Program-made: the position numbers and the translations under genes
Part shown: positions 2,173-63,731 of the stretch, one piece after another
How positions within the stretch are numbered: the stretch's first letter is position 1
Layout of the letters: each line of letters begins with the position of its first letter
Notes under the pieces: generated by a model
Seen by the model: the letters and a program-made list of their open reading frames with translations, nothing else
What the model was told of the DNA's origin: nothing
The model's database searches: none
DNA from: Burkholderiales bacterium
GTDB lineage: Bacteria; Pseudomonadota; Gammaproteobacteria; Burkholderiales; SG8-39
DNA length: 64,000 bases
NCBI GenBank assembly: GCA_035308765.1
Contig: DATGGA010000029.1
Location: forward strand, 30,437-94,436
Direction: 5' to 3'

Positions 2173-2920
2173 ACTCGTAGAAGCAGATCGCCGCCGCCGC
2201 CGCGACGTTCAGCGACTCGGCTGCTCCCGGCATTGGAACCGTCGCCTTTAGTTGCGCCCGCGCGGCCAGCGCCGCGCTCACACCCTGCCCTTCGGCGCCG
2301 AACAGCCAGCCGATCCTGCCGGACAGGTCGGCGTCCGCGAGCGGCGTGCCGCCGCGCGTGACCGTGCAGGCCACCTTGCCGCCGAAGCTTTCCATGGCTG
2401 CCGCCAAGTCGGCGTTCTCGAGGATCGCCATCGCGAAGTGCGCTCCCATTCCGGCCCGCAGCACCTTTGGCGACCAGGCATCCGCGCACCCTTGGCCAAG
2501 GGCCGCATGCAGAATGCCGAACGCCGCCGCGCTGCGGAGGATGGCGCCGACGTTTCCCGCGTCCTGGACGCCTTCGAGGAAAACACAATTGGCGGCGGTT
2601 TTGAGGTCCGGTTCTGCGCTTGGAAGAGAGATCTCCGCTGCAATTCCGGCGGGCGCATCCGTGTCGGCGATCGCCCGGAACACCTTGTCGGCGAGCACTA
2701 TGGGCGTCTTCCCGCACCGCTTTGCCAGGAGATTGAACCCAGCGGCCCGGCTCTTGCTCAGGATCAGCGCCTCGATCTTTCCGCCCGCGTCTACGAAAGC
2801 TTCGACCAGATGCTCACCCTCGATCAGCACGCGCTTTTCTTTGCGCCGTTCGCGCGCATCCCGCACCAGCGCCTGCCAGCGCCGCACGCGCGGGTTGTCG
2901 CGGGAGGAAAGAACGGTCAT
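2147..2920 (-). CDS. TrmH/SpoU-family RNA 2'-O-methyltransferase
   Basis: [12 protein letters not shown] start; [24 protein letters not shown] and [17 protein letters not shown] motifs. Start trimmed from the ORF-track call 2147..3196. Confidence 0.9.
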
Positions 2921-3495
2921 CCCGCTTCCAGAATACGCCGCACCGGCGCGAAGCTGCGGCGATGGATTTCGCTCGGGCCGTGCCTCTCCAGCAGCGCCAG
3001 GTGCTCCGGGGTCGGGTAGCCCTTGTGGCGGTCGAAGCAGTATTGCGGGAAACGCTCGTGCATCAGGCGCATTTCCGCATCGCGCGCCGTCTTGGCAAGG
3101 ATCGAGGCCGCCGATATGACCGGGTGCAGCCGGTCTCCCTGCACGAAGGCGCGGGTACGGCAGGCAAGTTTCGGGCAGCGGTCGCCGTCGATCCAAGCTT
3201 CGTCCGGCCGGATCTTCAGCAGTTCCACCGCGCGCCGCATGGCGAGCATCGTGGCCTGCAGGATGTTGAGGCGGTCGATTTCCTCGACGGTCGCGTACGC
3301 GACGGCGAATGCAATTGAATTTTGCTGGATCAATTCCGCGTATTTATCCCGTTGCAATGCGGAAAGCAGTTTTGAATCCTTCAATCCCTCGATGGGTTTT
3401 GCCGGGTCCAGAACGACCGCTGCAGCGTAAACAGGTCCTGCAAGCGGTCCCCGTCCGGCCTCGTCAACACCACAAATGTTACGCGCGGCCGGCAT
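2917..3495 (-). CDS. rnhB: Ribonuclease HII
   Basis: [43 protein letters not shown]; follows lpxB. Confidence 0.96.
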
Positions 3496-4639
3496 CCATC
3501 ACCGCCAGCACCGCGTCGGCCGCCTTCTGCGCGGTGTTCTGCCGCAGCAGCACGTGGATGTCGCGGAACTTCTCGATCTGCCTGCGTTGCGCGCCGGCAT
3601 CGTGCAGCAGCTCGAGCAGCGCGCCGGCGAGTGCGTCGGGCGTGGCCTTGTCCTGAAGGAGTTCCGGCACGAAATGTTCTCCCGCGACGATGTTCGGCAG
3701 GCCGATATAGGGGAGATAGCCCATCCTGCGCATCAGCACCGTGGTCAGCGGCGATTGGCGGTAGGTAATCACCATCGGCGTTTTGAAGAGCGCCGTCTCC
3801 AGCGTCGCCGTGCCGCTGGCGACCAGCGCGATGTCTGCCGCGGCCAGCGCCTCGTGCGAATGTCCGAACAGCAGCGTCAGCGGAAGGTCCCTCCCCTCGT
3901 TGCGGCGCAACGCGGCTTCGAACATGTCTCGCGTGGCGCGCGAGGCCGTGGGAACGATGAAATGGGCGTCCGGCCGGTCCTGCAGCAGCCGGCGTGCCGT
4001 CTTGACGAACAGATCGGCCATGTAATGCAATTCCGAATGCCGGCTTCCCGGAAGCAGCGCGAACAGCCGCCGCCCGGCGGGAATCCGCAATTCGACCCTC
4101 GCCTTGCCCCTGTCCGGTTCCATCGGAATCAGGTCGGCGAGCGGATGGCCGACATAGGTCACCGGCAAGCCCGTTTGTTCATACAGCGCCGCCTCGAATG
4201 GAAACAACGCCAGCAAATGGGTAACCGAACGGGCGATCCTGCGGATACGCCAGCCGCGCCAGGCCCAGATTGCCGGGCTGACGTAGTGGACGGCGGGGAT
4301 GCCGGCGTCCTTGAGCCTGCGTTCCAAAACGAGGTTGAAGTCGGACGCATCGACGCCTACAAAGACCGCCGGCCGTTCCGCAAGCATGCGCGCGGCGATC
4401 CGGCGCCGGATGCCCGAAATCTCCCGGTAGCGCCGCAGCACTTCCACGTAGCCGCGCACACCCAGTTTGTCCATCGGCGCCTGCGATTCGAAACCCTGTT
4501 CGGCCATCTTGAGGCCGCCGATGCCGGAAAAGCCCAGCCCGGGCCTGCGGTCCTTCAGGGCGGAGATCAGGTGCGCCGCGAGCAGGTCCCCCGAGGCTTC
4601 GGCGGCCACCATGCCGATGTGGGCCGCGCTGACCGGCAC
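3479..4639 (-). CDS. lpxB: Lipid-A-disaccharide synthase
   Basis: [45 protein letters not shown]; GTG start overlapping the lpxA stop (start inferred). Confidence 0.95.
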
Positions 4640-5409
4640 TAGCGTATGAAGCCGCGCGTCGAGGTGTTCAGGAAATCGAGGAGTACGCGCACCTCGGCGC
4701 AGGACGCCGCCTGGGATTCGAGTTCGCGCTTCACCTCGTCCTGTCCGAGGCCGCTGCGGTAGATGGTCCGGTAGGCACGCTTGATCGCGTCTATGGTTTC
4801 GCCCGGCAGGCCGCGCCGCCTGAGTCCCACGGTATTGATGCCGTAGGGCTGCGCCCTGTCGCCCGACGCCCTGACATATGGCGGCAAATCCCGGTCGACG
4901 GCGGTACCCATGCCGGTGAAGCTGTGGATGCCGATGCGCACGAACTGGTGCACCAGCGTGACGCCGCCAAGGATCGCCCAGTCGCCGACCTGCACGTGGC
5001 CGGCAAGCGCCGTGGCGTTGGCGAAGATCGTGCTGCTGCCGACCAGGCAATCGTGAGCGATATGCACATAGGCCATGATCCAGTTGTCGTTGCCTATGCG
5101 TGTCACGCGCGCGTCGCCCATGGTGCCCCGGTTGATCGTCACGCACTCGCGGATGGTATTGCCGTCGCCGATTTCGACCGAAGTGTCTTCGCCGGCGTAT
5201 TTCTTGTCCTGCGGCATGCCGCCGATCGAGGAAAACTGCCAGATGCGGTTGTTGCGGCCGATCCGCGTGCGTCCCTCGATCACCACGTGCGGCCCGATCC
5301 AGCTGCCTTCCCCGACCTCGACCTGCGGCCCGATCAGCGAATACGCGCCGACGTCGACATTGGCCGCAAGCCTTGCGCCCGGTTCGACGATGGCGGTGGG
5401 ATGGATCAT
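4639..5409 (-). CDS. lpxA: UDP-N-acetylglucosamine acyltransferase
   Basis: [12 protein letters not shown], hexapeptide repeats, [20 protein letters not shown]. Confidence 0.96.
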
Positions 5410-5864
5410 TTGCCCTCGACGCCGGCCTGGCGGACGGTGCACAGGATGTCGGCTTCCGCCGCCAGCAGCTCGCCGACGCGGGCGGTGCAGGAAAATTTCC
5501 AGATGCCGCGCTTGCTGCCGAGGAGCAGCACTTCGATCGCCAGCTGGTCGCCGGGCTCCACCACCCGCTTGAAGCGCGCGTTGTCGATGCCGGCGTAGTA
5601 GTAGACGGAGTTTTCGTCGGGCCGCTGCCCCATGGTGCGAAAGGCGAGAATCGCCGCCGCCTGCGCCATCGCCTCGAGGATCAGTACGCCGGGCATCACC
5701 GGCCGGCTCGGAAAGTGGCCCGGGAAGTGGGGCTCGTTCGCAGTCACGTTCTTCAGCGCCTTGATGCGCTTGCCGGGCTCGCACTCCAGCACCCGGTCGA
5801 TCATGAGGATCGGAAAGCGCTGCGGCAGGTATTCGAGTACCTGATGGATATCCATGTCAGCCAT
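5406..5864 (-). CDS. fabZ: 3-hydroxyacyl-ACP dehydratase
   Basis: [40 protein letters not shown]. Confidence 0.96.
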
Positions 5865-6182
5865 TGCCCGTCTCCTTGTCTTTCAACCGCTTCTCGAGCG
5901 CGCGAACGCGGTCCAGGAGCTCCGCAAGGTGGCGCACGACCGCGGTGTTGCGCGCCCAGGATTCATTGTCGTCGGCAGGGAACATGCCGGTGAAGTGCGT
6001 TCCCCGAGTTTTGCGCCCGTTGTCGCGAGCCTGGGGCCGTGTTTCGGGCTGGAAAGAAAGGCGATCTGGCCGCTGCCCGCGCGCTCGATCGAGCCGACCT
6101 GGCGGATCAGGGTGCCCGGCTCGCCAGCGATCCGGCCGCCGAGCCGCGACACGATCTGCGCGAGCGTAAGCGGCCCCGGCAT
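5857..6182 (-). pseudogene. lpxD: lpxD remnant with a large internal deletion and frameshift (biological or assembly artefact)
   Basis: Canonical skp-lpxD-fabZ position. N-terminal LpxD-like segment (LTLAQIVSRLGG..VGSIERAGSGQIAFL) in one frame; C-terminal LpxD-like helix (THFTGMFPADDNESWARNTAVVRHLAELLDRVRALEKRL, stop at 5857) in another frame; 326 bp in total. Confidence 0.85.
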
Positions 6183-50161: not shown

Positions 50162-53100
50162 ATGAAACTCTCATTCGGCCTTGGTTTCGGCGATCTCTAT
50201 CGGCGTGAGGGGCTGCTGCGCCTGGACGGCGCGTTTTTGTCGTTCCTCGATCCTGCTCTTCGGAAAAAACTTCTCGAGGCGAGAGACAATCCTCCTTCTT
50301 GGAAAGCGGAGTCCGAACTGCTCATCGAGCTCGCGCCGCATCTCGAGGATTTCCTCGCGCAACTGTTCGGCATCGAGACCGAAGCACAGGCGCTCGCGGC
50401 GCGTCACAACGAGCTCGCGCCGCTGTTTTCGGTGAAGCGTCTTTTCGTCCAGCGCCACGCCCTGCACAAAGTGAAGCCCGGGGATGCGACGTCCGGCGGT
50501 TATGCTTTTTCCACCGAACTGGAATTCGCGAAGCAGGTAACGGAATGGGGCAAGGACCAGGCTGCGAACGCGGGCAAGATCGAAGGCGCGGCGCGTTATG
50601 CCGCCTGGGCGGCCACGACTCCGGAAGGCAAGGCGAAGCATCGCGCGGGCATTCTGTTCAAGACCCCGCTCAAGCTCGATTTCATGCGCCTGGTGCCGGT
50701 CCACACCGATATGTCGCAGGGATTCGCGAAGCACAGCCTCGAGCACCTGCGCCAGCGCGACGGCTTCGCCCTGACCGATCACGGTACCGACCTCACAGGT
50801 GCGCTCGACCAGGCGAACTACTGCATCTGGTGCCACGAGCAGGGCAAGGATTCCTGCTCCAAGGGCCTGAAAGAGAAGGCCCCTGCCACCGGATTCAAGA
50901 AGACCCAGTTCGGCGTGCCGCTCGCCGGCTGCCCGCTCGAAGAAAAAATTTCCGAATTCCACCTCGTCAAGGCGCGCGGCGAACCGCTGGCAGCGCTGGC
51001 AGTGATCTGCATCGACAACCCGATGGCCGCGGCCACCGGGCACCGCATCTGCAACGACTGCATGAAATCCTGCATCTACCAGAAGCAGGCGCCGGTGGAC
51101 ATTCCCCAGGCGGAGACACGCACGCTCAAGGACGTGCTCGAACTCCCCTGGGGTTTCGAGATCTATTCTCTGCTGACGCGCTGGAACCCGCTTAACCTGC
51201 GCCGCCCTGTTCCGCTCCCGGAGAGCGGGCGCAAGGTGATGGTGGTCGGCCTGGGGCCTGCCGGGTTCACGCTCGCCCACCACCTCATGAACGACGGACA
51301 CGCGGTGGCCGGAATCGACGGCCTCAAGCTGGAGCCGCTGAGCGTGCCCTTCGAGCCGGTGAAGGACGTGCGCAGCCTGTACGAGGACCTCGGCGGGCGC
51401 GTGATGGCCGGCTTCGGCGGCGTCGCCGAGTACGGCATCACCGTGCGCTGGGACAAAAACTTCCTCAAGATCATCCGCCTGCTGCTGGAGCGGCGCAGCC
51501 AGTTCGCCATGTTCGGCGGCGTGCGCTTCGGCGGCACGGTGACGCTGGAAGACGCGATGGCGATGGGCTTCGACCACGTTGCGCTGTGCGTCGGCGCGGG
51601 CAAGCCGACGGTGCTCGACATCCCGAACGGACTTGCTCGCGGCGTGCGCGCCGCATCGGACTTCCTGATGGCGCTGCAGCTCACGGGCGCCGCCAAGGAA
51701 GACTCCATCGCCAACATGCAGCTGCGCCTGCCGGTGGTGGTGATCGGCGGCGGGCTGACGGCAATCGACACCGCCACCGAGTCCCTCGCCTACTACGTCG
51801 TGCAGGTGAACAAGTTCCTCGAGCGTTATGAAGCGCTTGCGGCGGAGATCGGCGAGGACGCGGTGCGGGCGAACTGGGACGACCAGGAGCGCGAGATCGC
51901 GGAGGAATTTCTCGCGCACGCGAGGACTTTGAGAAATACGGCGAAAGAAAAGCACATCGAGTTGTTGCGGCACTGGGGCGGGGTCACCATCGCCTACCGC
52001 CGGCGCCTCATCGATAGTCCCTCCTACACGCTGAACCACGAGGAAGTCGAAAAGGCCTTGGAAGAAGGCATCTGGTTCGCCGAAGGATTGACCCCTGCTG
52101 CAGTGGACGTAGACAACTTCGGCGCCGTCAAGGGTATCCGCCTCAAGGGCGCAGCGACCGAGCACTGGCTGCCGGCGCATACCGTGTTTGTCGCTGCGGG
52201 CACCCAACCCAACACCGTGCTCGCGAGGGAAGACGCCGCGCACTTCTCGCTCGACGGCAAATACTTCGCTGCCTGCGACACCGACGGCAAGCCGGTCAAA
52301 CCACAGTACTCCACTTCCAAACCGGCGACGCCGAATGTGTTGCTGTCGAAGCAGCTCGACGGCCGCTTCGTCAGCTACTTCGGCGACGTGCATCCGTCCT
52401 ATTTCGGCAACGTCGTGAAAGCGATGGGCAGCGCAAAGCAGGGCTATCCGATTGTCTCGAAGGTTTTGAACTCAAGACCTCCCGTTGCAAAGGAAAATTT
52501 CTTCGATCGACTTTCCGACCAGCTCAATGCAACCGTCCACAAGGTCGAACGGCTGACGCCCACCATCGTCGAGGTCATCGTCCGCGCGCCTCTGGCGGCA
52601 AAAAAATTCCAGCCTGGCCAGTTTTATCGGCTGCAGAACTTCGAAACTCTTGCTCCTGTCGCCGCGAAAACGCGCATGCAGATGGAAGGCCTCGCGATGA
52701 CCGGCGCCTGGGTGGATCGCAAGAAAGGACTAGTCTCCATCATCGCGCTGGAAATGGGCGGCTCGAGCGATTTGTGCGCCATGCTCAAGCCCGGCGAACC
52801 CGTGATCCTGATGGGACCAACCGGGACGCCGACCGAGATCGCGGGTGGCGAGACGGTAGTGCTATGCGGCGGCGGCCTGGGCAACGCGGTGCTGTTCTCC
52901 ATCGGCGCGGCATTCCGCGCCGCGGGCTCGAAAGTCCTCTACTTCGCCGGATACAAGAAGGTCGCCGATCGCTACAAGGTTTCCGACATCGAGAACGCCG
53001 CCGACGCGGTGATCTGGTGCTGCGACGAGGCGCCCGGCTTCAAGCCCGGGCGCCCGCAGGACCGCAGTTTCGTCGGCAACATCGTGCAGGCCATGGACGC

Positions 53101-53503
53101 CTACGCCGAAGGACGGCTGGGCGCGCTCTCGATCCGCCTCGACGATTGCGACCGGCTGATCGCCATCGGCTCCGACCGCATGATGGCCGGCGTCGCGAAA
53201 GCGCGCCACGACGTACTCAAACCGCACCTGAAACCCGCCCACTTCGCAATCGGCTCCATCAACTCGCCGATGCAATGCATGATGAAAGAGATCTGCGCGC
53301 AGTGTCTGCAGCCGCACCGCGATCCGGTCACCGGCGAAACCAGCTACGTGTTTTCCTGCTTCAATCAGGACCAGCCGCTCGACAGCGTGGATTTCAAGGG
53401 CCTTCACGAGCGCCTGAAGCAGAACTCGCTGGCGGAGAAGCTGAGCGCAGGCTGGCTGCGCCACTGTATGCCCGGGCTCAGGAAGCAGCGCAGCTTCGTC
53501 TAG
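50162..53503 (+). CDS. Large FAD/Fe-S oxidoreductase: GltD/NfnB-like module fused to a C-terminal PyrK/NfnA-like module
   Basis: CIWC..C, GCPL, HRICNDCMKSC, VGLGPAGF, IGGGLTAID; C-terminal PGQF, MGPTG, CGGGLG, MQCMMKEICAQC..FSC. Confidence 0.8.
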   Translation: MKLSFGLGFGDLYRREGLLRLDGAFLSFLDPALRKKLLEARDNPPSWKAESELLIELAPHLEDFLAQLFGIETEAQALAARHNELAPLFSVKRLFVQRHALHKVKPGDATSGGYAFSTELEFAKQVTEWGKDQAANAGKIEGAARYAAWAATTPEGKAKHRAGILFKTPLKLDFMRLVPVHTDMSQGFAKHSLEHLRQRDGFALTDHGTDLTGALDQANYCIWCHEQGKDSCSKGLKEKAPATGFKKTQFGVPLAGCPLEEKISEFHLVKARGEPLAALAVICIDNPMAAATGHRICNDCMKSCIYQKQAPVDIPQAETRTLKDVLELPWGFEIYSLLTRWNPLNLRRPVPLPESGRKVMVVGLGPAGFTLAHHLMNDGHAVAGIDGLKLEPLSVPFEPVKDVRSLYEDLGGRVMAGFGGVAEYGITVRWDKNFLKIIRLLLERRSQFAMFGGVRFGGTVTLEDAMAMGFDHVALCVGAGKPTVLDIPNGLARGVRAASDFLMALQLTGAAKEDSIANMQLRLPVVVIGGGLTAIDTATESLAYYVVQVNKFLERYEALAAEIGEDAVRANWDDQEREIAEEFLAHARTLRNTAKEKHIELLRHWGGVTIAYRRRLIDSPSYTLNHEEVEKALEEGIWFAEGLTPAAVDVDNFGAVKGIRLKGAATEHWLPAHTVFVAAGTQPNTVLAREDAAHFSLDGKYFAACDTDGKPVKPQYSTSKPATPNVLLSKQLDGRFVSYFGDVHPSYFGNVVKAMGSAKQGYPIVSKVLNSRPPVAKENFFDRLSDQLNATVHKVERLTPTIVEVIVRAPLAAKKFQPGQFYRLQNFETLAPVAAKTRMQMEGLAMTGAWVDRKKGLVSIIALEMGGSSDLCAMLKPGEPVILMGPTGTPTEIAGGETVVLCGGGLGNAVLFSIGAAFRAAGSKVLYFAGYKKVADRYKVSDIENAADAVIWCCDEAPGFKPGRPQDRSFVGNIVQAMDAYAEGRLGALSIRLDDCDRLIAIGSDRMMAGVAKARHDVLKPHLKPAHFAIGSINSPMQCMMKEICAQCLQPHRDPVTGETSYVFSCFNQDQPLDSVDFKGLHERLKQNSLAEKLSAGWLRHCMPGLRKQRSFV

Positions 53504-53510
53504 GCGCCAC

Positions 53511-53548
53511 TTGACGGGATATACAAGTCTTATATAAGATTTGTATAT
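53511..53548 (+). promoter_or_regulatory. sigma70 promoter (TTGACG-N16-TATAAG) overlapped by a 30-bp palindrome (putative operator)
   Basis: ATATACAA-G-TCTTATATAAGA-T-TTGTATAT at 53519-53548, covering the -10 element and the ATG. Confidence 0.75.
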
Positions 53549-53750
53549 GCCGAAGCTGAAATCGAAGATCAGTACCTTCTCCGCGGCGCCGCGGGACCTG
53601 GAGATGCTGGACGTCGTCGCGCGCTATCACGGCACCAACAAGAGCGCGACGATCGTCAGCCTCGTGCGCCGGGAATTCTGGCGTGCCTTTCCGGGTGGCA
53701 CGGACAAAATCCGGCCCGATCGTGGTGCCAAGGTGGAGGACGGAAAATGA
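53547..53750 (+). CDS. Small ribbon-helix-helix-like putative DNA-binding protein (67 aa)
   Basis: KISTFSA (beta strand), PRDLEMLDVVARYH (helix), GTNKSATIVSLVRREFW (G-x-x-x-S turn plus helix); ATGA overlap with the next gene. Confidence 0.65.
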   Translation: MPKLKSKISTFSAAPRDLEMLDVVARYHGTNKSATIVSLVRREFWRAFPGGTDKIRPDRGAKVEDGK

Positions 53751-54922
53751 GATTCCTGTTGCTGGCTGCCCTGCTCGTCTCGTCGAGCGCTTTCTCGCAG
53801 GACATCAAGCTCGGAGAGCTGAACAGCTACAAGGTCTTCCCTGCTTTCCTGGAGCCTTATAAGAAGGGCATGGAGCTCGCGATCGAGGAGATCAACGGCT
53901 CCGGCGGCGTGCTGGGAAGAAAGCTCGAACTGATAACGCGGGACGACGGCGGCAATCCGGGCGACGCGGTGCGGGTCGCCGAGGAGCTGATTTCGCGCGA
54001 CAAGGTAAACGTGCTCATGGGGACGTTCGCGTCCAACGTCGGCCTGGCCGTGTCGAATCTCGCCGCGCAGCGCAAGGTGCTGTTCATCGCCTCCGAGCCG
54101 CTCACGGACAAGATCGTGTGGGAGAACGGCAACCGCTACACGTTTCGGCTGCGGCCCTCTACCTACATGCAGACTGCCATGCTGATCCCCGAGGCGGTGA
54201 AGCTGAAGAAGAAGCGCTGGGCGATCGTCTACCCGAACTACGAGTACGGCCAGTCGGCGACGGCGTCGTTCAAGAAGCTGCTGAAGGCGGCGCAGCCGGA
54301 CGCGGAGTTCGTCGCCGAGCAGGCGCCGCCGCTGGGCAAGATCGACGGCGGCGCGGTGGTGCAGGCGCTGATCGACGCCAGGCCGGACGCGATTTTCTCG
54401 TCTCTGTTCGGCGCCGACCTGCAGAAGTTCGTGCGCGAGGGCAACACGCGCGGCCTGTTCAGGAACACGCCGGTGTTCAACCTGATCGCGGGCGAGCCGG
54501 AATATCTCGACACGCTCAAGGACGAAACTCCCGACGGCTGGTGGGTGACGGGCTATCCGTGGAGCGCGATCAGCACGCCAGAGCACCGCAAGTTCCGCGA
54601 TGCCTACCAGAAGCGCTGGAAGGACTATCCCCGCGAGGGCTCTGTCGTGGGCTACGTGTCGGTCTACACAGTGGCCAACGCGCTGCGCAAAGCTGGCTCG
54701 ACGGATACCGAGAAGCTGGTCGAGGCGATGAAGGGCCTGGAAATGGGAACGCCCTTCGGCCCGATCGTCTGGCGACCGCTCGACCACCAGTCGACCATGG
54801 GCGCCTATGTCGGGCAGTTGGCGCGAAAGGATGGCCAGGGCGTGATGGTGAACTGGCGCTTCGCCGATGGAGCCAATTTCCTGCCGTCGTTTGAAGAGGT
54901 AAAGGCGCTTAGAAAAGAATAA
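53747..54922 (+). CDS. ABC transporter substrate-binding protein (LivJ/LivK-like, type 1)
   Basis: Signal peptide, EEINGSGGVLGRKLELITRDD, YPNYEYGQS. Confidence 0.9.
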   Translation: MRFLLLAALLVSSSAFSQDIKLGELNSYKVFPAFLEPYKKGMELAIEEINGSGGVLGRKLELITRDDGGNPGDAVRVAEELISRDKVNVLMGTFASNVGLAVSNLAAQRKVLFIASEPLTDKIVWENGNRYTFRLRPSTYMQTAMLIPEAVKLKKKRWAIVYPNYEYGQSATASFKKLLKAAQPDAEFVAEQAPPLGKIDGGAVVQALIDARPDAIFSSLFGADLQKFVREGNTRGLFRNTPVFNLIAGEPEYLDTLKDETPDGWWVTGYPWSAISTPEHRKFRDAYQKRWKDYPREGSVVGYVSVYTVANALRKAGSTDTEKLVEAMKGLEMGTPFGPIVWRPLDHQSTMGAYVGQLARKDGQGVMVNWRFADGANFLPSFEEVKALRKE

Positions 54923-54930
54923 TATAATCA

Positions 54931-56748
54931 ATGTCTTTATCGTCAGTCCTCATCCAGTTTCTTAACGGGCTGGCGAGCACCTCGGCGCTATTCCTGGTCG
55001 CTGCGGGGCTGTCGCTGATCTTCGGCGTTACCCGCATCGTCAATTTCGCCCACGGCTCCCTCTACATGCTCGGCATGTACCTGGCGGTCTGGCTGGCCGA
55101 ACGGGTCGGGTTCTGGGCGGCGGTACCGCTGGCTGCGATCGTGGTCGCAGCCGTAGGATGCCTCGCAGAGATCGGCCTTCTGCGAAGAATCTACAAGGCG
55201 CCCGAGCTGCTGCAGCTGCTCGCCACCTTCGCGCTGATGCTGGTGATCAAGGACGCGGCGCTCTGGGCCTGGGGGCCGGAAGATCTGCTTGGACCGCGCG
55301 CTCCCGGTTTCGCCGGGGCGGTGAAAATCGCGGGCAGCGCATTCCCGCAGTACGACCTGCTGCTGATCCTGCTGGGCCCCCTGGTGTTCATTTTTCTCCA
55401 GTTCATTCTTTTCAGGACCCGCTGGGGCATCCTGGTCCGCGCCGCGAGCCAGGACCGCGAGATGGCCGGCGCGCTCGGCGTCAACCAGCGCTGGCTGTTC
55501 ACCGGGGTGTTCGCGCTGGGCGCCCTGCTCGCCGGGCTGAGCGGCGCGCTGCGGATCCCGCTGGAGCCCGCGACCCTTTCGATCGACCTGTCGGTGATAT
55601 CGGACGCCTTCGTCGTCGTCGTGGTCGGGGGCCTGGGCTCGATTCCGGGCGCGTTTCTCGCCGCGCTGCTGATCGCGGAGATCAAGTCGTTCTGCATCGG
55701 GCTCGGCTTCTCGCAGGCCACGCTCGTCGTGGAGTTCATCGTCATGGCCGCGGTGCTGGTGGTCCGGCCACGGGGCTTGCTGGGTCAAGCGCAGGCTTTG
55801 GCGAGAAATCCGGGGATCACGGAAGCATCCCTTGAACCGCCGGAAAGAAAATTCCTCGCCGCAGGCTCCGCGCTGCTCGTCGTCCTCGCGCTGGTTCCGA
55901 TCGCTTCCCCCGGTTACACGCTGGTATTGCTCGAAGACATCCTGGTCTTCGCCCTGTTCGCTGTCAGCCTGCACTTCATCATGGGGCCTGGCGGCCTCTA
56001 TTCCTTCGGCCACGCGGCCTTCTTCGGACTCGGCGCCTATGCGGCCGGCATTCTCCTTCTGCGGGCAAAGCTGCCGATGGAACTCGCGCTGGCGCTGGCG
56101 CCTCTCGCCGCCTGCCTGGGCGCGATCGTCTTCGGCTGGTTCGTGGTGCGGCTCTCCGGCGTGTATTCCGCGATGCTGACGCTCGCCTTCGCGCAGATCG
56201 CCTGGTCTGCGGCTTTCGAGTGGGATGCGCTCACCGGCGGATCCAACGGCCTCGTCGGAACGTGGCCGGCGGCCTGGCTGTCGTCGGAGCCGGCGTATTA
56301 CTTCCTGACGCTGCTGCTGTGCGCGTCCGGAATTCTCTTCCTGTGGCGGGCAATGTATTCCCCGTTCGGCTACGCCCTGCGCGCCTGCCGGGATTCGCCG
56401 CTGCGCGCCGAGTCGATCGGCATCGACGTGCGCGCGACGCAATGGGCCGCATTTGCCTGCGCGGGACTGGCGGCGGGCGTCGCCGGCGCGCTGTACGCCT
56501 TCTCCAAGGGCTCGATCTCGCCCGACGTGCTGGGAATACAGCGCTCGGTCGACGGCCTGGTGATGGTGATGCTGGGCGGCATCCAGACGCTCAGCGGGCC
56601 GGCCTGGGGCGCGGCGCTGCTTACCTGGCTGCAGGACGCCGCCGCACGCAACATCGACTACTGGCGTGCGGTGGTCGGCATTGCGATCCTCGCGCTGGTT
56701 CTGATCCTGCCGAACGGAATCGGTTCTCTCTTTCAATCGAGAAAATGA
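54931..56748 (+). CDS. Fused LivH-LivM-like ABC permease
   Basis: GLSLIFGVTRIVNFAHG (LivH-like), then SFGHAAFFGLGAY and MVMLGGI (LivM-like) in one ORF. Confidence 0.9.
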   Translation: MSLSSVLIQFLNGLASTSALFLVAAGLSLIFGVTRIVNFAHGSLYMLGMYLAVWLAERVGFWAAVPLAAIVVAAVGCLAEIGLLRRIYKAPELLQLLATFALMLVIKDAALWAWGPEDLLGPRAPGFAGAVKIAGSAFPQYDLLLILLGPLVFIFLQFILFRTRWGILVRAASQDREMAGALGVNQRWLFTGVFALGALLAGLSGALRIPLEPATLSIDLSVISDAFVVVVVGGLGSIPGAFLAALLIAEIKSFCIGLGFSQATLVVEFIVMAAVLVVRPRGLLGQAQALARNPGITEASLEPPERKFLAAGSALLVVLALVPIASPGYTLVLLEDILVFALFAVSLHFIMGPGGLYSFGHAAFFGLGAYAAGILLLRAKLPMELALALAPLAACLGAIVFGWFVVRLSGVYSAMLTLAFAQIAWSAAFEWDALTGGSNGLVGTWPAAWLSSEPAYYFLTLLLCASGILFLWRAMYSPFGYALRACRDSPLRAESIGIDVRATQWAAFACAGLAAGVAGALYAFSKGSISPDVLGIQRSVDGLVMVMLGGIQTLSGPAWGAALLTWLQDAAARNIDYWRAVVGIAILALVLILPNGIGSLFQSRK

Positions 56749-57497
56749 GCATTCTCGCCGTCAAGGGTCTCACGAAATCTTTCGGCGGCGTGCGCGCGGT
56801 CTCCGGCGTGAGCTTCTCCGTGGATGCCGGCGAACTGCTGGCGATGATCGGTCCGAACGGCGCCGGCAAAACCACCTGCTTCAATCTGGTCAACGGACAA
56901 CTGCAGCCCGACGCCGGGGAGGTTCTGTTTCAGGGAAGGAAAACTCGGGGGATGACCCCCCGTGAACTGTACCGCCTGGGCGTCGGCCGCACATTTCAGA
57001 TCACCGCCACCTTCGGCTCCATGAGCGTGCGCGAGAACGTGCAGCTTGCGCTGCTCTCGCATGCGAAAAGGCTCGGCTCCCCTTTCTCGTCCTTTTCCGG
57101 AGCGATTTCCGGACCAACGGATGAATTGCTGGAAGGCGTCGGCATGCGGCGGCAGGCGGACAAGCGGTGCGCGGAACTCGCCTACGGCGACCTCAAGCGC
57201 GTCGAACTGGCTGTGGCGCTTGCCGGCCGCCCGCGGCTGCTGCTGATGGACGAGCCCACGGCGGGAATGGCCGCGGCGGAGCGTCACATGCTTATGAAGC
57301 TTGTCGAAGGAACTGCAAAGGAAGAAAACATATCCGTACTCTTTACGGAGCACGACATGGACATCGTCTTCGGGCATGCCGACCGCGTCATCGTGCTCTC
57401 CGAGGGCGAACTGATCGCGCAGGGCAGCCCGGCCGCCGTCCGCGCGGACCCGCTGGTCCGCCGCGTCTATCTCGGCGAGGAAGCCGCCCGTGCTTGA
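56745..57497 (+). CDS. ABC ATP-binding protein (LivG-like)
   Basis: GPNGAGKTT, LAYGDLKRVELA, LLMDEPTAG. Confidence 0.92.
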   Translation: MSILAVKGLTKSFGGVRAVSGVSFSVDAGELLAMIGPNGAGKTTCFNLVNGQLQPDAGEVLFQGRKTRGMTPRELYRLGVGRTFQITATFGSMSVRENVQLALLSHAKRLGSPFSSFSGAISGPTDELLEGVGMRRQADKRCAELAYGDLKRVELAVALAGRPRLLLMDEPTAGMAAAERHMLMKLVEGTAKEENISVLFTEHDMDIVFGHADRVIVLSEGELIAQGSPAAVRADPLVRRVYLGEEAARA

Positions 57498-58191
57498 ACT
57501 CAAACGCATCAACGCAGGCTACGGCCGGGCGCAGATCCTGTTCGACTTCGACCTGGCGCTGCGCCGCGGCGAAGTTACCGCCCTCCTCGGCCGCAATGGC
57601 GCCGGCAAATCCACCGCGTTGAAAGCTACGATGGGACTGCTGCCGGCACTATCCGGGGAGATTCTTTTTGACGGCCACAACCTCCGCGGCCTTGAGCCCT
57701 TTCGCATCTCGCGCTTCGGTCTCGGCTACGTGCCGGAGGACCGGCGCATCTTCACCGACCTGACGGTGATGGAGAATCTCGAAGCCGGCCGCCAGCCCCG
57801 GCGCGCGGATGCGCCCTACTGGACCCTGGAACGCCTGTTTGAACTGTTTCCCAACCTCGACCGGATGCGTGGGCGGCGCGGCGGCAGCATGTCGGGCGGC
57901 GAGCAGCAGATGCTCGCCATCGCGCGCACGCTGATGGGCAATCCCCGCACCATTCTCCTCGACGAGCCGTTCGAAGGCCTCGCACCGGTGATCGTCGATA
58001 GCGTCGCCAGGGCCATCCGCGAACTGAAACGGGAGGGGCTGAGCGTCCTGCTGTGCGAGCAGAACCCGCGCTTCGCCCGGCTGGTTGCGGATCGCGCCTG
58101 CATTATCGAAAAGGGCCGGCTGTGCCACGCCGGCACGCTCGCCGGGCTGGACGCTGACCCTGCGCTACGCGAGCGCTACCTCGCCGCTTGA
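57490..58191 (+). CDS. ABC ATP-binding protein (LivF-like)
   Basis: GRNGAGKST, YVPEDRRIF, MSGGEQQMLAIARTL, LLDEP. Confidence 0.92.
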   Translation: MLELKRINAGYGRAQILFDFDLALRRGEVTALLGRNGAGKSTALKATMGLLPALSGEILFDGHNLRGLEPFRISRFGLGYVPEDRRIFTDLTVMENLEAGRQPRRADAPYWTLERLFELFPNLDRMRGRRGGSMSGGEQQMLAIARTLMGNPRTILLDEPFEGLAPVIVDSVARAIRELKREGLSVLLCEQNPRFARLVADRACIIEKGRLCHAGTLAGLDADPALRERYLAA

Positions 58192-61344: not shown

Positions 61345-62547
61345 CTAACGATAGTTACGCAACGCCGGCACCATCCAGAACGGCGTCGACGCCAGAGCAA
61401 TCGAGCATACGGAGAACACCAGGCCCGTCGCGTAGCCGCCCGTGAGGTCGTGCAGCACGCCGCCCACCAGCGAGCCGAGCGCGGCGCCGAGAGAATTGCA
61501 CGCGAACACGGTGCCGTAAATGGTCGCCACGCGCGGCCCCGCGAAATGCCGCGTGCAGATGGACGAGATGATCGGGCCGCGCACGCCCATCGATGCTCCA
61601 AACACCAGCACGAACGCCGCCAGCAACGGCGTGGAGGGATAGGCGGCCAGCGCCAGCAGCAGGAGCATGCCGGCCATGGTGCCGACGAAGCTCACGCTGA
61701 CGGTCTGGCGCGAGCCGAAGCGTTCGGTCAGGAAGCCGCTGCCCATCACGCTGCCGGCCGAGAGCATGCCGCACACGCCGAATGCCGTCGCCGCGGTGAG
61801 CGGCGGGAAACCGGCGTCCACCAGGAACGCCACCAGCTGCACGAAGATCGCGAACATCCCGACCGCGGTGAAAAAGAACGCCTGCACCATGCCCCAGTAG
61901 ATGCGCGTGCCCGTCGCCTTGCGCAGCGTCCATTCGGAGCCCGAATGAGGCAGCTGGCTGGCGCGCTCTGCGGGCCGTCCGGCGGCGAAGCGGCGCCAGG
62001 GCAGGACCAGCAGCACCAGCGGCGCGACTCCCAGCATGACGCTTCCCATCAGCTTGTAGGCGCCCCGCCAGCCGTATTGCCCGATCAGGGTCTGCGCGAT
62101 CGGCACGAAGACGATGATCCCCACGCCCGTGGCGGAAAACGCGATGCCGATGGCGCGCGACAGGCGCGCGTGGAACCATCTTGAAAGCATCGCCGAGGCG
62201 GGGACCATGCCGGTCATCGCCACTCCTACCCCCACCGTGGCGCCGATCAGCAGGTAGAACTGCCACAGGCGATGGAGCGAGCTGGCGGCAAGGTAGGCGC
62301 CGCCGATGCAGGCGATGCCGGCGCTGTAGACGAGGCGCGGCCCGACGCGATCGAACAGGATCCCGATCAGCGGCGCGGTAAACCCGCTCACCAGCAGGAA
62401 CACGGAATAGACGCTGGTGAGCTGGTAGCGCGTCCAGCCGTACTCGCGCTGCAGCGGCAGCAGGAACACCGCATAGGAGTCGCCCAGGCCGCGGCCGAGC
62501 ATGTTGAGGACGAAGCAGACCGCGAGTACGGCGACCGCGGTGTTCAA
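61345..62547 (-). CDS. MFS transporter
   Basis: Many hydrophobic helices, motif-A-like [10 protein letters not shown]; TTG start overlapping the pncB stop. Confidence 0.88.
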
Positions 62548-63731
62548 TTCACTCCCGTCTTGTCCAGCCCGAAGACCTGGCGCAGGTAGGTCAGGTAGCC
62601 GGCATCCTTGCTGACGGTCTTGCCCGGCGAATCGGAAACCTTGGCCACCGGCTGGCCGTTGCACTCGGTCATCTTGATCACGATGTTGATCGGCTCGTAG
62701 CCCAGGTCATTGGTCAGATTGGTGCCGATGCCGAAGGCGGTGATGGCGCGGCCGTGGAAGCGGCGCGCGATCTCGATCGCGATCGGCACCGTGAGCTGGT
62801 CGGAAAAGATCAGCGTCTTGGTGCGCGGATCGACGCGGTTCTTCCGGTAGTGCTCGATCAGCCGCTCGCCCCAGACGAAGGGATCGCCCGAGTCGTGCCG
62901 GGCGCCGTCGAACAGCTTGCAGAAGTACATGTCGAAATCGCGCAGGAACGCGTCCGTGCCGTAGGTGTCGGCGACCGCGATGCCGAGATCGCCGCGGTAT
63001 TCCTTGGCCCAGACGTCGAAGGCATAGATCTGCGAGTCGCGCAGGCGCGGCCCGAGCGCCTGGCAGGCCTGCATGTATTCGTGCGCCATGGTGCCCAGCG
63101 GCGTCACCGCGTGCTTCATCGCCAGCAGCACGTTCGAGGTGCCGGCGAAGTGTTCCGGGGTCTCGCGCTTGAAGGTGCCGATGAGTTCCTCGTGCCAGGC
63201 GCGCGAAAAGCGCCGGCGCGTGCCGAAATCGGAAATCCGGAAGCCGAGCGACGGTTCCAGCTTGCGCACCGCCTCGATCTTCGCCTTGAGCCGGCGCCGG
63301 CCCTGATCCAGGTCCGGCCTCGGCTGTGTACGGCGGAAATACACTTCCGACACGATCGCCAGCACCGGGATCTCGTACATGATCGTATGCAGCCAGGGAC
63401 CGCGGATCGTGATGTCGATGCCGCAGGGCTCGCCGGGCGCGCGCTCGATGCGGATGTTCCTCGCGTTGAACTGGAACAGGCCGAGGAAATCGACGAAGTC
63501 CGATTTCATGAAGCGCAGGCTGCGCAGGTAGGCCAGCTCGTCGTCGCGGAAACGCAGCTTGCACAGGTCCGCGACCCCGGCGCGGATTTCGTCGAGATGC
63601 GGCGCGAGATCGACGCCTTCGGTGCGGCACTTGAACACGTACTCGACCTGCGCACCCGGAAAATGGTGCAGCACGACCTGCATCATCGTGAACTTGTACA
63701 GGTCGGTGTCGAGCATCGAGTCGATGATCAT
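62544..63731 (-). CDS. pncB: Nicotinate phosphoribosyltransferase
   Basis: [52 protein letters not shown]. Confidence 0.96.

Follow-up and report, generated by a model that had tools for sequence, protein, structure and literature searches.

A likely ribbon-helix-helix autorepressor family tied to quinolinate synthase genes and, in one Burkholderiales clade, to a candidate niacin importer

Ribbon-helix-helix (RHH) repressors such as CopG of plasmid pMV158, Arc, Mnt and MetJ are tiny proteins that consist of a strand, a helix, a G-x-S/T-K-S turn and a second helix. In the CopG, Arc and MetJ group, short repeated subsites spaced one helical turn apart overlap the promoter of the repressor itself. 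A similar predicted protein pattern and the same kind of operator layout recur in a 64,000-nucleotide stretch of DNA from a Burkholderiales bacterium (contig DATGGA010000029.1, positions 30,437 to 94,436; hereafter the window, with positions counted from its first letter). Here a small gene for a 67-residue protein starts within an AT-rich palindrome and heads an operon for an ATP-binding cassette (ABC) importer, and by analogy the small protein may regulate its own synthesis. The site has the repeated subsites about one helical turn apart (11-bp period) and the dyad symmetry that are typical of RHH-type operators, and it takes the form of three TRTAYA boxes 11 bp apart. The small protein differs from CopG and Arc in having a conserved 20-residue C-terminal tail that both lack and in giving no Pfam RHH match. 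Its gene is chromosomal and is tied to nadA, which encodes quinolinate synthase, or to a transporter, rather than to plasmid copy control, phage immunity or methionine genes.

In bacteria, the transcription factors known to control the synthesis and salvage of nicotinamide adenine dinucleotide (NAD) are of just four types: NadR, NiaR, NrtR and NadQ (PMC12421817, 2025). NiaR (YrxA), a niacin-responsive repressor in Bacillus, Clostridium and Thermotoga, controls nadABC in genomes with a de novo pathway and the niacin transporter gene niaP alone in those without one, and in T. maritima it is encoded in a self-regulated operon together with the transporter gene, niaR-niaP (PMC2330245). We propose the same regulatory logic for the small protein, which would control either nadA-type genes or a niacin transporter. 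The two regulators are nevertheless unrelated, since NiaR is much larger and belongs to another family, whereas the protein described here has 67 residues and a single target operon, and its transporter is a Liv-family ABC system rather than NiaP, NiaX or NiaY. NadR, NrtR and NadQ also repress NAD synthesis or salvage genes, often together with their own gene, as is proposed here. All four known types are helix-turn-helix or Nudix-related proteins with defined effector domains, and none is an RHH protein (PMC2330245, PMC2330246, PMC12421817). Pfam and NCBIfam models detect no helix-turn-helix or Nudix-like domain in the 67 residues, and the small protein is not a member of any of these four types. 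Its family occurs mainly in Acidobacteriota, Latescibacterota, Handelsmanbacteria and one Burkholderiales clade. A full-text literature search for RHH together with nadA or quinolinate returned nothing relevant.

The explanation that best accounts for the locus is that the small protein acts as an RHH-type repressor in NAD-precursor supply, with a nicotinate importer under its control. We consider this full explanation moderately probable. The locus probably represents an undescribed RHH family with a new physiological role, together with a candidate new niacin importer. The regulatory region contains the following features.

53511-53516, + strand: -35 hexamer TTGACG
53519-53548: candidate operator, a 30-bp AT-rich palindrome, ATATACAAGTCTTATATAAGATTTGTATAT, with a single mismatched pair, G53527/T53540
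53520-53525, 53531-53536 and 53542-53547: three TRTAYA boxes in the palindrome, TATACA, TATATA and TGTATA, whose starts are exactly 11 bp apart
53533-53540, + strand: -10 region within the central box, either TATAAG at 53533-53538 (spacer 16) or TAAGAT at 53535-53540 (spacer 18)
53547-53750, + strand: small gene for the 67-residue RHH-like protein (P0001)
53735-53740, + strand: GGAGGA Shine-Dalgarno (SD) sequence of the binding-protein gene, 6 nt before its ATG at 53747 and inside the 3' end of the small gene

A repeat finder traces the dyad further, to arms of 19 nt (53515-53533 and 53534-53552) that are 89% complementary. The GC content is 0.33-0.42 over the palindrome region, compared with ~0.65 in the surrounding DNA, and positions 53504-53560 read gcgccacTTGACGggATATACAAGTCTTATATAAGATTTGTATATGccgaagctga. 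All three boxes fit the TRTAYA consensus, which is itself self-complementary. The pattern TRTAYA-N5-TATATA-N5-TRTAYA has 1 match in the 64-kb window at 0 mismatches, and shuffled sequences have none at <=2 mismatches. A promoter scanner selects TTGACG-N18-TAAGAT as 1 promoter-like site in 1.2 kb, where 0.2 is expected from shuffles. The +1 is predicted at A53547, the first base of the ATG, if TAAGAT is the -10 hexamer and ~53545 if TATAAG is, which leaves a gap of 6 or 8 nt between the end of the -10 hexamer and the ATG. This geometry is conserved across the Burkholderiales clade. No SD sequence precedes the ATG at 53547, and there is no GGAG-like or purine-rich motif in the preceding 12 nt. 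At the other end of the gene, its TGA (53748-53750) overlaps the ATG (53747-53749) of a Peripla_BP_6 gene in the sequence ATGA. The operon transcript is probably leaderless or nearly so, and we infer that the binding-protein gene is translated by coupling through this overlap. One soil metatranscriptome contains reads for the binding protein of relatives and zero reads over 53470-53775, and is thus uninformative on the start site. An earlier sequence-only reading of this region had described the AT-rich palindrome at 53519-53548 with its one mismatched pair, an overlapping TTGACG-N16-TATAAG promoter, an ATG at 53547 located 8 nt after the -10 with no SD, and a 67-residue open reading frame (ORF) coupled by ATGA to the substrate-binding gene. 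We find each of these elements in place. The palindrome was also considered as an intrinsic terminator of the upstream gene, and this role was rejected: there is no U-run and the terminator scanner finds none.

The ORF is almost certainly a real gene that is under purifying selection. The single sequence retrieves 436 homologue clusters at E < 0.01 from 5.8 billion proteins searched, nearly all of them 65-69 residues long, and a profile of distant members raises this number to 1,455 clusters in a family of nearly all 64-72 residues. All of the public homologues are called "hypothetical protein" and none is named. The family is compact, with 39 representatives at 50% identity. Among 25 full-length Burkholderiales copies, the ratio of nonsynonymous to synonymous polymorphism (pN/pS) is 0.19, and 61 of the 67 codons vary at the third position but only 19-23 at the first or second. 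The family consensus is KVRTFSATxRDLEMLEAVARYHGxSKSATIxSLVRKEFWRxFPxGTxxIxPDxGAxV, and the predicted parts of P0001 are as follows.

Residues ~7-13: strand
Residues 15-28: helix A
Between the helices: turn HG-x-x-KS
Residues 33-47: helix B
Residues 48-61: conserved tail, FPxGTxxIxPDxGA

Conservation of the 20-residue C-terminal tail matches that of the DNA-binding core, and the tail has seven near-invariant positions (F48, P49, G51, T52, P57, G60 and A61). One family member, P0135 (101 residues), has a cytidylyltransferase-like N-terminus (PPAT-like, GSFDPPTNGH) joined to the RHH core from the MLEA motif onward, and it is probably a gene-call or assembly chimera.

Profile comparison provides the clearest indication of the fold. 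When the family profile is aligned with CopG by hhalign, the match has a probability of 89.0% with 27 sequences and 90.6% with 84 sequences (E ~1e-6, residues 10-38). The aligned segments, TFSAtxRDxxMLEAVARYHGxSKSAtI of the family and TITLSESVLENLEKMAREMGLSKSAMI of CopG, are in register through the strand, helix A, the turn and the N-terminus of helix B. CopG also appears near the top of an hmmsearch of the PDB with the family profile (E = 0.3-0.4, individually insignificant), in a listing that includes chance matches to phosphate acetyltransferase and KDM5 demethylases. An AlphaFold2 monomer has helices at residues 15-28 and 33-47, the positions that an RHH fold requires, an unstructured N-terminus and no strand, with a predicted local distance difference test (pLDDT) score of 68, and the same two-helix monomer is obtained with 27 and with 84 sequences. 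A free N-terminus is expected in a monomer because the RHH strand pairs only in the dimer. The top Foldseek matches of this model are nearly all RHH proteins: NikR, Arc, MazE9, CopG, TacA and ParD, and also VapB. Several results count against the assignment. The PDB sequence matches (E of at least 0.1) and the Foldseek matches (E of at least 0.76) are each insignificant, and the low-scoring monomer is strandless. The Pfam RHH models (RHH_1 and relatives) give no match to P0001 at E <= 0.1, the sole RHH-related Pfam match among 27 relatives is to DUF6290 in one member (E = 0.1), and no NCBIfam model matches the small protein. The family falls outside the current curated RHH models. On balance, an RHH fold for the 67-residue protein is likely, with moderate support.

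These results also bear on how the sequence-only reading had interpreted the ORF. The homologue and selection checks that it proposed come out clearly in favor of a gene (>1,400 clusters, pN/pS 0.19). Its proposal of an autoregulatory RHH repressor gains from the CopG profile match and from the co-conservation of the operator described below; the fold keeps its moderate support, and repression would follow by analogy. It had also seen no obvious effector domain. No domain is detected, but the tail is as conserved as the DNA-binding core.

The palindrome accompanies the small gene over great phylogenetic distances. Scanning one genome per species yields 53 loci that encode close relatives, and nearly all of them have an AT-rich dyad centred on TTATATAA within ~50 nt of the start codon. 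Of the 57 loci scored, nadA-linked loci included, 46 match the three-box pattern at 16-18 of 18 positions. Whichever gene comes next, phased boxes precede the small gene in Burkholderiales, Blastocatellia, other Acidobacteriota, Latescibacterota and Handelsmanbacteria. The three ~11-bp subsites that had been read from the window alone are thereby borne out by relatives, for example by one Blastocatellia locus with three identical boxes 11 bp apart (TATATA-aaatt-TATATA-aaatt-TATATA). The central box has an information content of 1.7-1.8 bits and the outer boxes reach 1.8 bits, compared with 0.5-0.6 bits in the spacers, and 7 of 13 pairs retain the dyad through changes to both partners. In every case the boxes overlap a -10 hexamer that follows a TTGAC-like -35 at a spacing of 16-18 nt, and TTGAC(A/G/C) occurs at a constant distance from the boxes in most Burkholderiales loci. 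The placement of the promoter relative to the boxes differs between groups. In the clade of the window, the central box serves as the -10 and the A of the ATG is the last base of the third box, whereas in Blastocatellia the first box is the -10 and is followed by a short leader with an SD sequence.

The operator is confined to this position in each genome. A weight matrix made from the homologous sites finds exactly 1 site in the 3.26-Mb window genome (60 bits, with nothing else >12 bits), and the operator is also unique in three Blastocatellia genomes (7-9 Mb). The genome-wide scan that the sequence-only reading had called for thus gives a single site per genome. Because there is no second operator in the window genome or in the three Blastocatellia genomes, nadB, nadC and pncB are not preceded by one. 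The gene and its site stay together while the flanking genes change, which fits a cognate pair of autorepressor and operator and not a transporter-specific regulator. Comparative evidence of this kind makes it probable that the palindrome is the operator of a cognate, local autorepressor. The earlier reading had offered a GntR/HutC-type regulator as its own alternative, a suggestion contradicted by a site that follows the small gene and is unique per genome. We rejected this candidate because no such gene is conserved nearby and the site does not follow the transporter. It had also suggested looking for joint conservation of the palindrome and the ABC genes, and here the outcome is divided: the palindrome is kept with the small gene across phyla, but among the loci examined the ABC genes lie downstream in Burkholderiales only and nadA takes their place elsewhere.

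The gene order in all ~46 Burkholderiales loci is an SDR gene on the minus strand, a gene for a 1,113-residue NfnAB-like flavoprotein, the small gene, and genes for the binding protein, a fused permease and two ATPases. Outside Burkholderiales, every locus examined (~two dozen) has nadA directly downstream of the small gene, usually with an ATGA overlap. This arrangement is found in six Blastocatellia loci and in 7 distinct loci from Latescibacterota, a 9.2-Mb genome, Handelsmanbacteria and unassigned metagenome contigs, whose neighbours are otherwise unrelated. In a sample of 301 Acidobacteriota genomes, nadA is downstream in 12 of 12 small-gene matches. Rfam models identify no NAD riboswitch in nine RHH-nadA loci, nor in three loci without the small gene. 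In a phylogenetic tree, the ABC-linked proteins group together as one clade (98/95 support) within an unresolved polytomy that includes the nadA-linked clades, and a single ABC-linked clade implies that the cargo was swapped once. The usual partner nadA gives a strong lead on the input signal, which may be NAD or niacin status.

Two of the nadA-linked settings have a loose tie to NAD(H) metabolism. In the 9.2-Mb genome, the RHH-nadA pair is located between the nqr and nuo operons, and the Handelsmanbacteria pair has a NAPRTase gene two genes upstream on the opposite strand.

Genomes with the RHH-ABC arrangement appear to depend on an external NAD precursor. None of 30 such genomes has NadA, true NadB or true NadC; they contain only weak NAPRTase cross-matches and sub-threshold paralogues that we take as Sdh/Frd-type. 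The genome of the window itself is 94.8% complete. Three Blastocatellia genomes, by comparison, have NadA, NadB and NadC. Without NadC, NAD can be synthesized neither from aspartate nor from tryptophan. The window does encode a salvage enzyme outside the operon.

62544-63731, - strand: pncB, nicotinate phosphoribosyltransferase (TIGR01514, 470 bits versus a cut-off of 270; Pfam NAPRTase)

The lack of NadC and the presence of PncB mean that nicotinate is the usable precursor. An MFS_1-type transporter ORF (61345-62664, - strand), which is not of the NiaP (Sugar_tr) type, overlaps the 3' end of pncB and could be a second pyridine-related transporter. More broadly, we sampled 81 genomes of the family, in which orthologues of the binding protein are 63-87% identical. 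NadA is absent from 67 of these genomes. A binding-protein orthologue is present in 2 of the 14 genomes with NadA and in 48 of the 67 without it (Fisher p = 1e-4), and switches between the two occur inside two genera. Niacin auxotrophy thus appears to be widespread in this soil Burkholderiales lineage, as judged from gene content.

The four genes downstream of the small gene encode a complete importer.

53747-54922, + strand: periplasmic binding protein of the Liv/Urt type, candidate nicotinate binder (Peripla_BP_6, Pfam E = 1.2e-72)
54931-56748, + strand: fused LivH/LivM-type permease (BPD_transp_2 in two stretches; UrtB-like and UrtC-like halves)
56745-57497, + strand: ABC ATPase of the LivG type (ABC_tran and BCA_ABC_TP_C)
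57490-58191, + strand: ABC ATPase of the LivF type (ABC_tran)

By their Pfam domains all four belong to a Liv/HAAT-family ABC importer, in agreement with the Liv-type uptake operon that had been proposed from the sequence. None reaches a substrate-specific NCBIfam equivalog, and the candidate substrate is suggested by genomic context. The binding protein matches PDB 3I45, its Liv-type orthologue from R. rubrum, over its whole length (E = 1e-143), with 59% identity by tblastn to the R. rubrum locus. A search for literature on PDB 3I45 and on nicotinate-binding Liv-type proteins found nothing. In one relative without the small gene (L075), a nicotinamidase gene on the reverse strand ends 11 nt upstream of the binding-protein orthologue. 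Its product scores 195 bits against NF008623 (cut-off 174) and has an N-terminal twin-arginine (Tat) signal, MNRRSFLWAAAGISLVG..., which implies that this PncA is periplasmic, an unusual location for the enzyme. In a second genus, pncA lies 1.4 kb upstream of the binding-protein orthologue. A periplasmic nicotinamidase that feeds a nicotinate-binding protein would be a coherent pathway.

One Rhodospirillales orthologue is grouped with genes for a molybdenum hydroxylase of the xanthine dehydrogenase family and for PRK04334 and AA_synth proteins, which are two conserved unknown genes, and the PRK04334 gene also precedes a binding-protein orthologue in the family of the window. A published alphaproteobacterial nicotinate-degradation cluster contains a "putative nicotinate ABC transporter" (PMC3511419). 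The Rhodospirillales neighbourhood resembles this cluster, a likeness drawn from its published description (PMC3511419). Unlike those clusters, the importer of the window would serve cofactor salvage and not catabolism. The R. rubrum 3I45 locus and the nicotinate-cluster loci also lack the RHH gene and the AT-rich operator that are present in the window.

A mechanism consistent with these observations can be outlined. Dimers of the small protein, most likely two or three, would bind cooperatively to the three boxes on successive helical turns of one DNA face. The bound dimers would cover the -10, the +1 and the start codon and so exclude RNA polymerase, and this negative autoregulation would limit the synthesis of both the small protein and the importer. 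Release of the repressor would produce a leaderless or near-leaderless mRNA from which the binding-protein gene would be translated by coupling. The ancestral and nearly universal role of the family would be to head a two-gene operon with nadA. In a Burkholderiales clade without de novo NAD synthesis, the regulator and its operator would have come to precede the genes of a Liv-type ABC importer. This importer would most likely bring in nicotinate, possibly derived from periplasmic nicotinamide, for salvage by PncB. In both settings the regulator would keep NAD-precursor supply matched to demand. Its corepressor is probably a pyridine metabolite common to the two routes, such as nicotinate, nicotinate mononucleotide (NaMN) or NAD; a shared pyridine corepressor is the most economical choice, since one protein serves both nadA and the importer. 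The conserved C-terminal tail is an obvious candidate site for the corepressor or for contacts between dimers.

We lean modestly toward an NAD or niacin role for the regulator and importer, and a number of findings weigh against it. Some of them would also be explained if the small protein were an RHH autorepressor without any specific tie to NAD that answers to another cue, or to none and simply damps noise, while the importer takes up some other small solute. Candidate solutes are amides, amino acids and aromatic acids, and the solute may be one on which the NfnAB-like flavoprotein acts. The binding-protein gene lies near the gene for this large flavoprotein in both the clade of the window and R. 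rubrum, where the flavoprotein orthologue is ~2 kb upstream of the binding-protein orthologue, and the shared neighbourhood could mean a different substrate. The NCBIfam models nearest to the binding protein describe binders of urea and of branched-chain amino acids, all far below cut-off, and pncA adjacency occurs in only 2 of 49 genomes. The operator is unique per genome and the nadB and nadC genes of Blastocatellia lack it, so that the regulator looks local rather than pathway-wide and a full "NAD regulon" is not seen. NadA is missing across the family (67 of 81 genomes) and not just from carriers of the small gene. The RHH gene itself shows no significant association with NadA in the family sample (0 of 9 versus 14 of 72, p = 0.35), because most of the family lacks NadA anyway, and 41 of the 50 binding-protein orthologues in the family occur without the RHH gene (9 of 50 with it). 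NadA is an oxygen-sensitive iron-sulfur enzyme, which makes an iron or redox cue conceivable. This alternative must nonetheless account for ~two dozen independent loci outside Burkholderiales in which the gene is paired with nadA alone amid unrelated neighbourhoods, for the anticorrelation between NadA and the cargo that replaces it (p = 1e-4), and for the linkage of the importer elsewhere to pncA and to nicotinate-type gene clusters. We regard it as unlikely.

Two further alternatives concern the palindrome and the tail. The palindrome might not be the operator of the small protein at all, but the site of a different regulator or an RNA hairpin that hides the start codon in read-through transcripts, and the small protein would then have some other role. 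Transcribed as RNA, 53504-53565 folds at -20.9 kcal/mol (z = -4.7), paired changes that keep the dyad in 7 of 13 pairs are expected of a stem as well, and the scanner finds no terminator between the upstream flavoprotein gene and the palindrome. However, the promoters that can be recognized in this clade and in Blastocatellia start inside the palindrome or at its 3' end, so their own mRNA lacks the full stem, and the stem is not followed by the U-run of a terminator. The spacers are also far less conserved than the boxes and are non-complementary in several loci, the site and gene remain together while upstream and downstream genes change, and no other regulator gene is conserved nearby; together these make the idea quite improbable. 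Still more improbable is an antitoxin-like or adaptor RHH protein whose tail binds a protein partner such as NadA in a complex that sets DNA affinity. RHH antitoxins do use such tails, the Foldseek matches include MazE, TacA, ParD and VapB, the tail is near-invariant at seven positions, and the small gene is as a rule tightly coupled in translation to the gene that follows. Yet no locus has an adjacent toxin-like gene (PADLOC was not searched), a binding-protein gene or nadA is downstream instead, and the tail is unchanged in this clade even though NadA is absent and the downstream product goes to the periplasm. In read-through RNA, a 13-bp hairpin would bury the start codon that lacks an SD sequence, so that only transcripts from the gene's own promoter would be translatable.

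If the NAD-linked repressor is real, it would be a fifth, structurally unrelated class of NAD-homeostasis regulator, an RHH protein of 64-72 residues that autoregulates RHH-nadA operons and senses a pyridine through its tail, and the importer would be the first ABC-type, binding-protein-dependent nicotinate importer for cofactor salvage. This combined claim is tentative, and we place it somewhat short of an even chance. A fifth type of regulator with a minimal RHH fold would partly close a known gap and, being very small and easily purified, would lend itself to studies of metabolite-controlled cooperative DNA binding. The niacin transporter NiaP was identified from the NiaR regulon by comparative logic (PMC2330245). 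The same logic points here to niacin uptake by a Liv-family ABC system, which would re-annotate many "branched-chain amino acid" transporters. A soil Burkholderiales family that is mostly without de novo NAD synthesis would depend on niacin from its community.

The gene directly upstream of the small gene, at 50162-53503 on the + strand, encodes the NfnAB-like flavo-iron-sulfur protein of 1,113 residues. Such a gene has this position in ~40 Burkholderiales loci, and a counterpart is at 2590-6039 of locus L064. It matches NCBIfam PRK06567 below the cut-off, and its R. rubrum orthologue (58% identical) carries the Pfam domain RP005_N. Some loci of the Burkholderiales type (L008, L029, L048 and L006) sit in metagenome-assembled genomes (MAGs) that are labelled Clostridia, Enterobacteriaceae or Bordetella; these labels are probably binning or labelling errors and not real hosts. 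One MAG holds two RHH-ABC loci on two contigs (L051, 168-1355, and L037). In one of its two copies the binding-protein gene is split by an in-frame stop, which reflects either a pseudogene or an assembly error.

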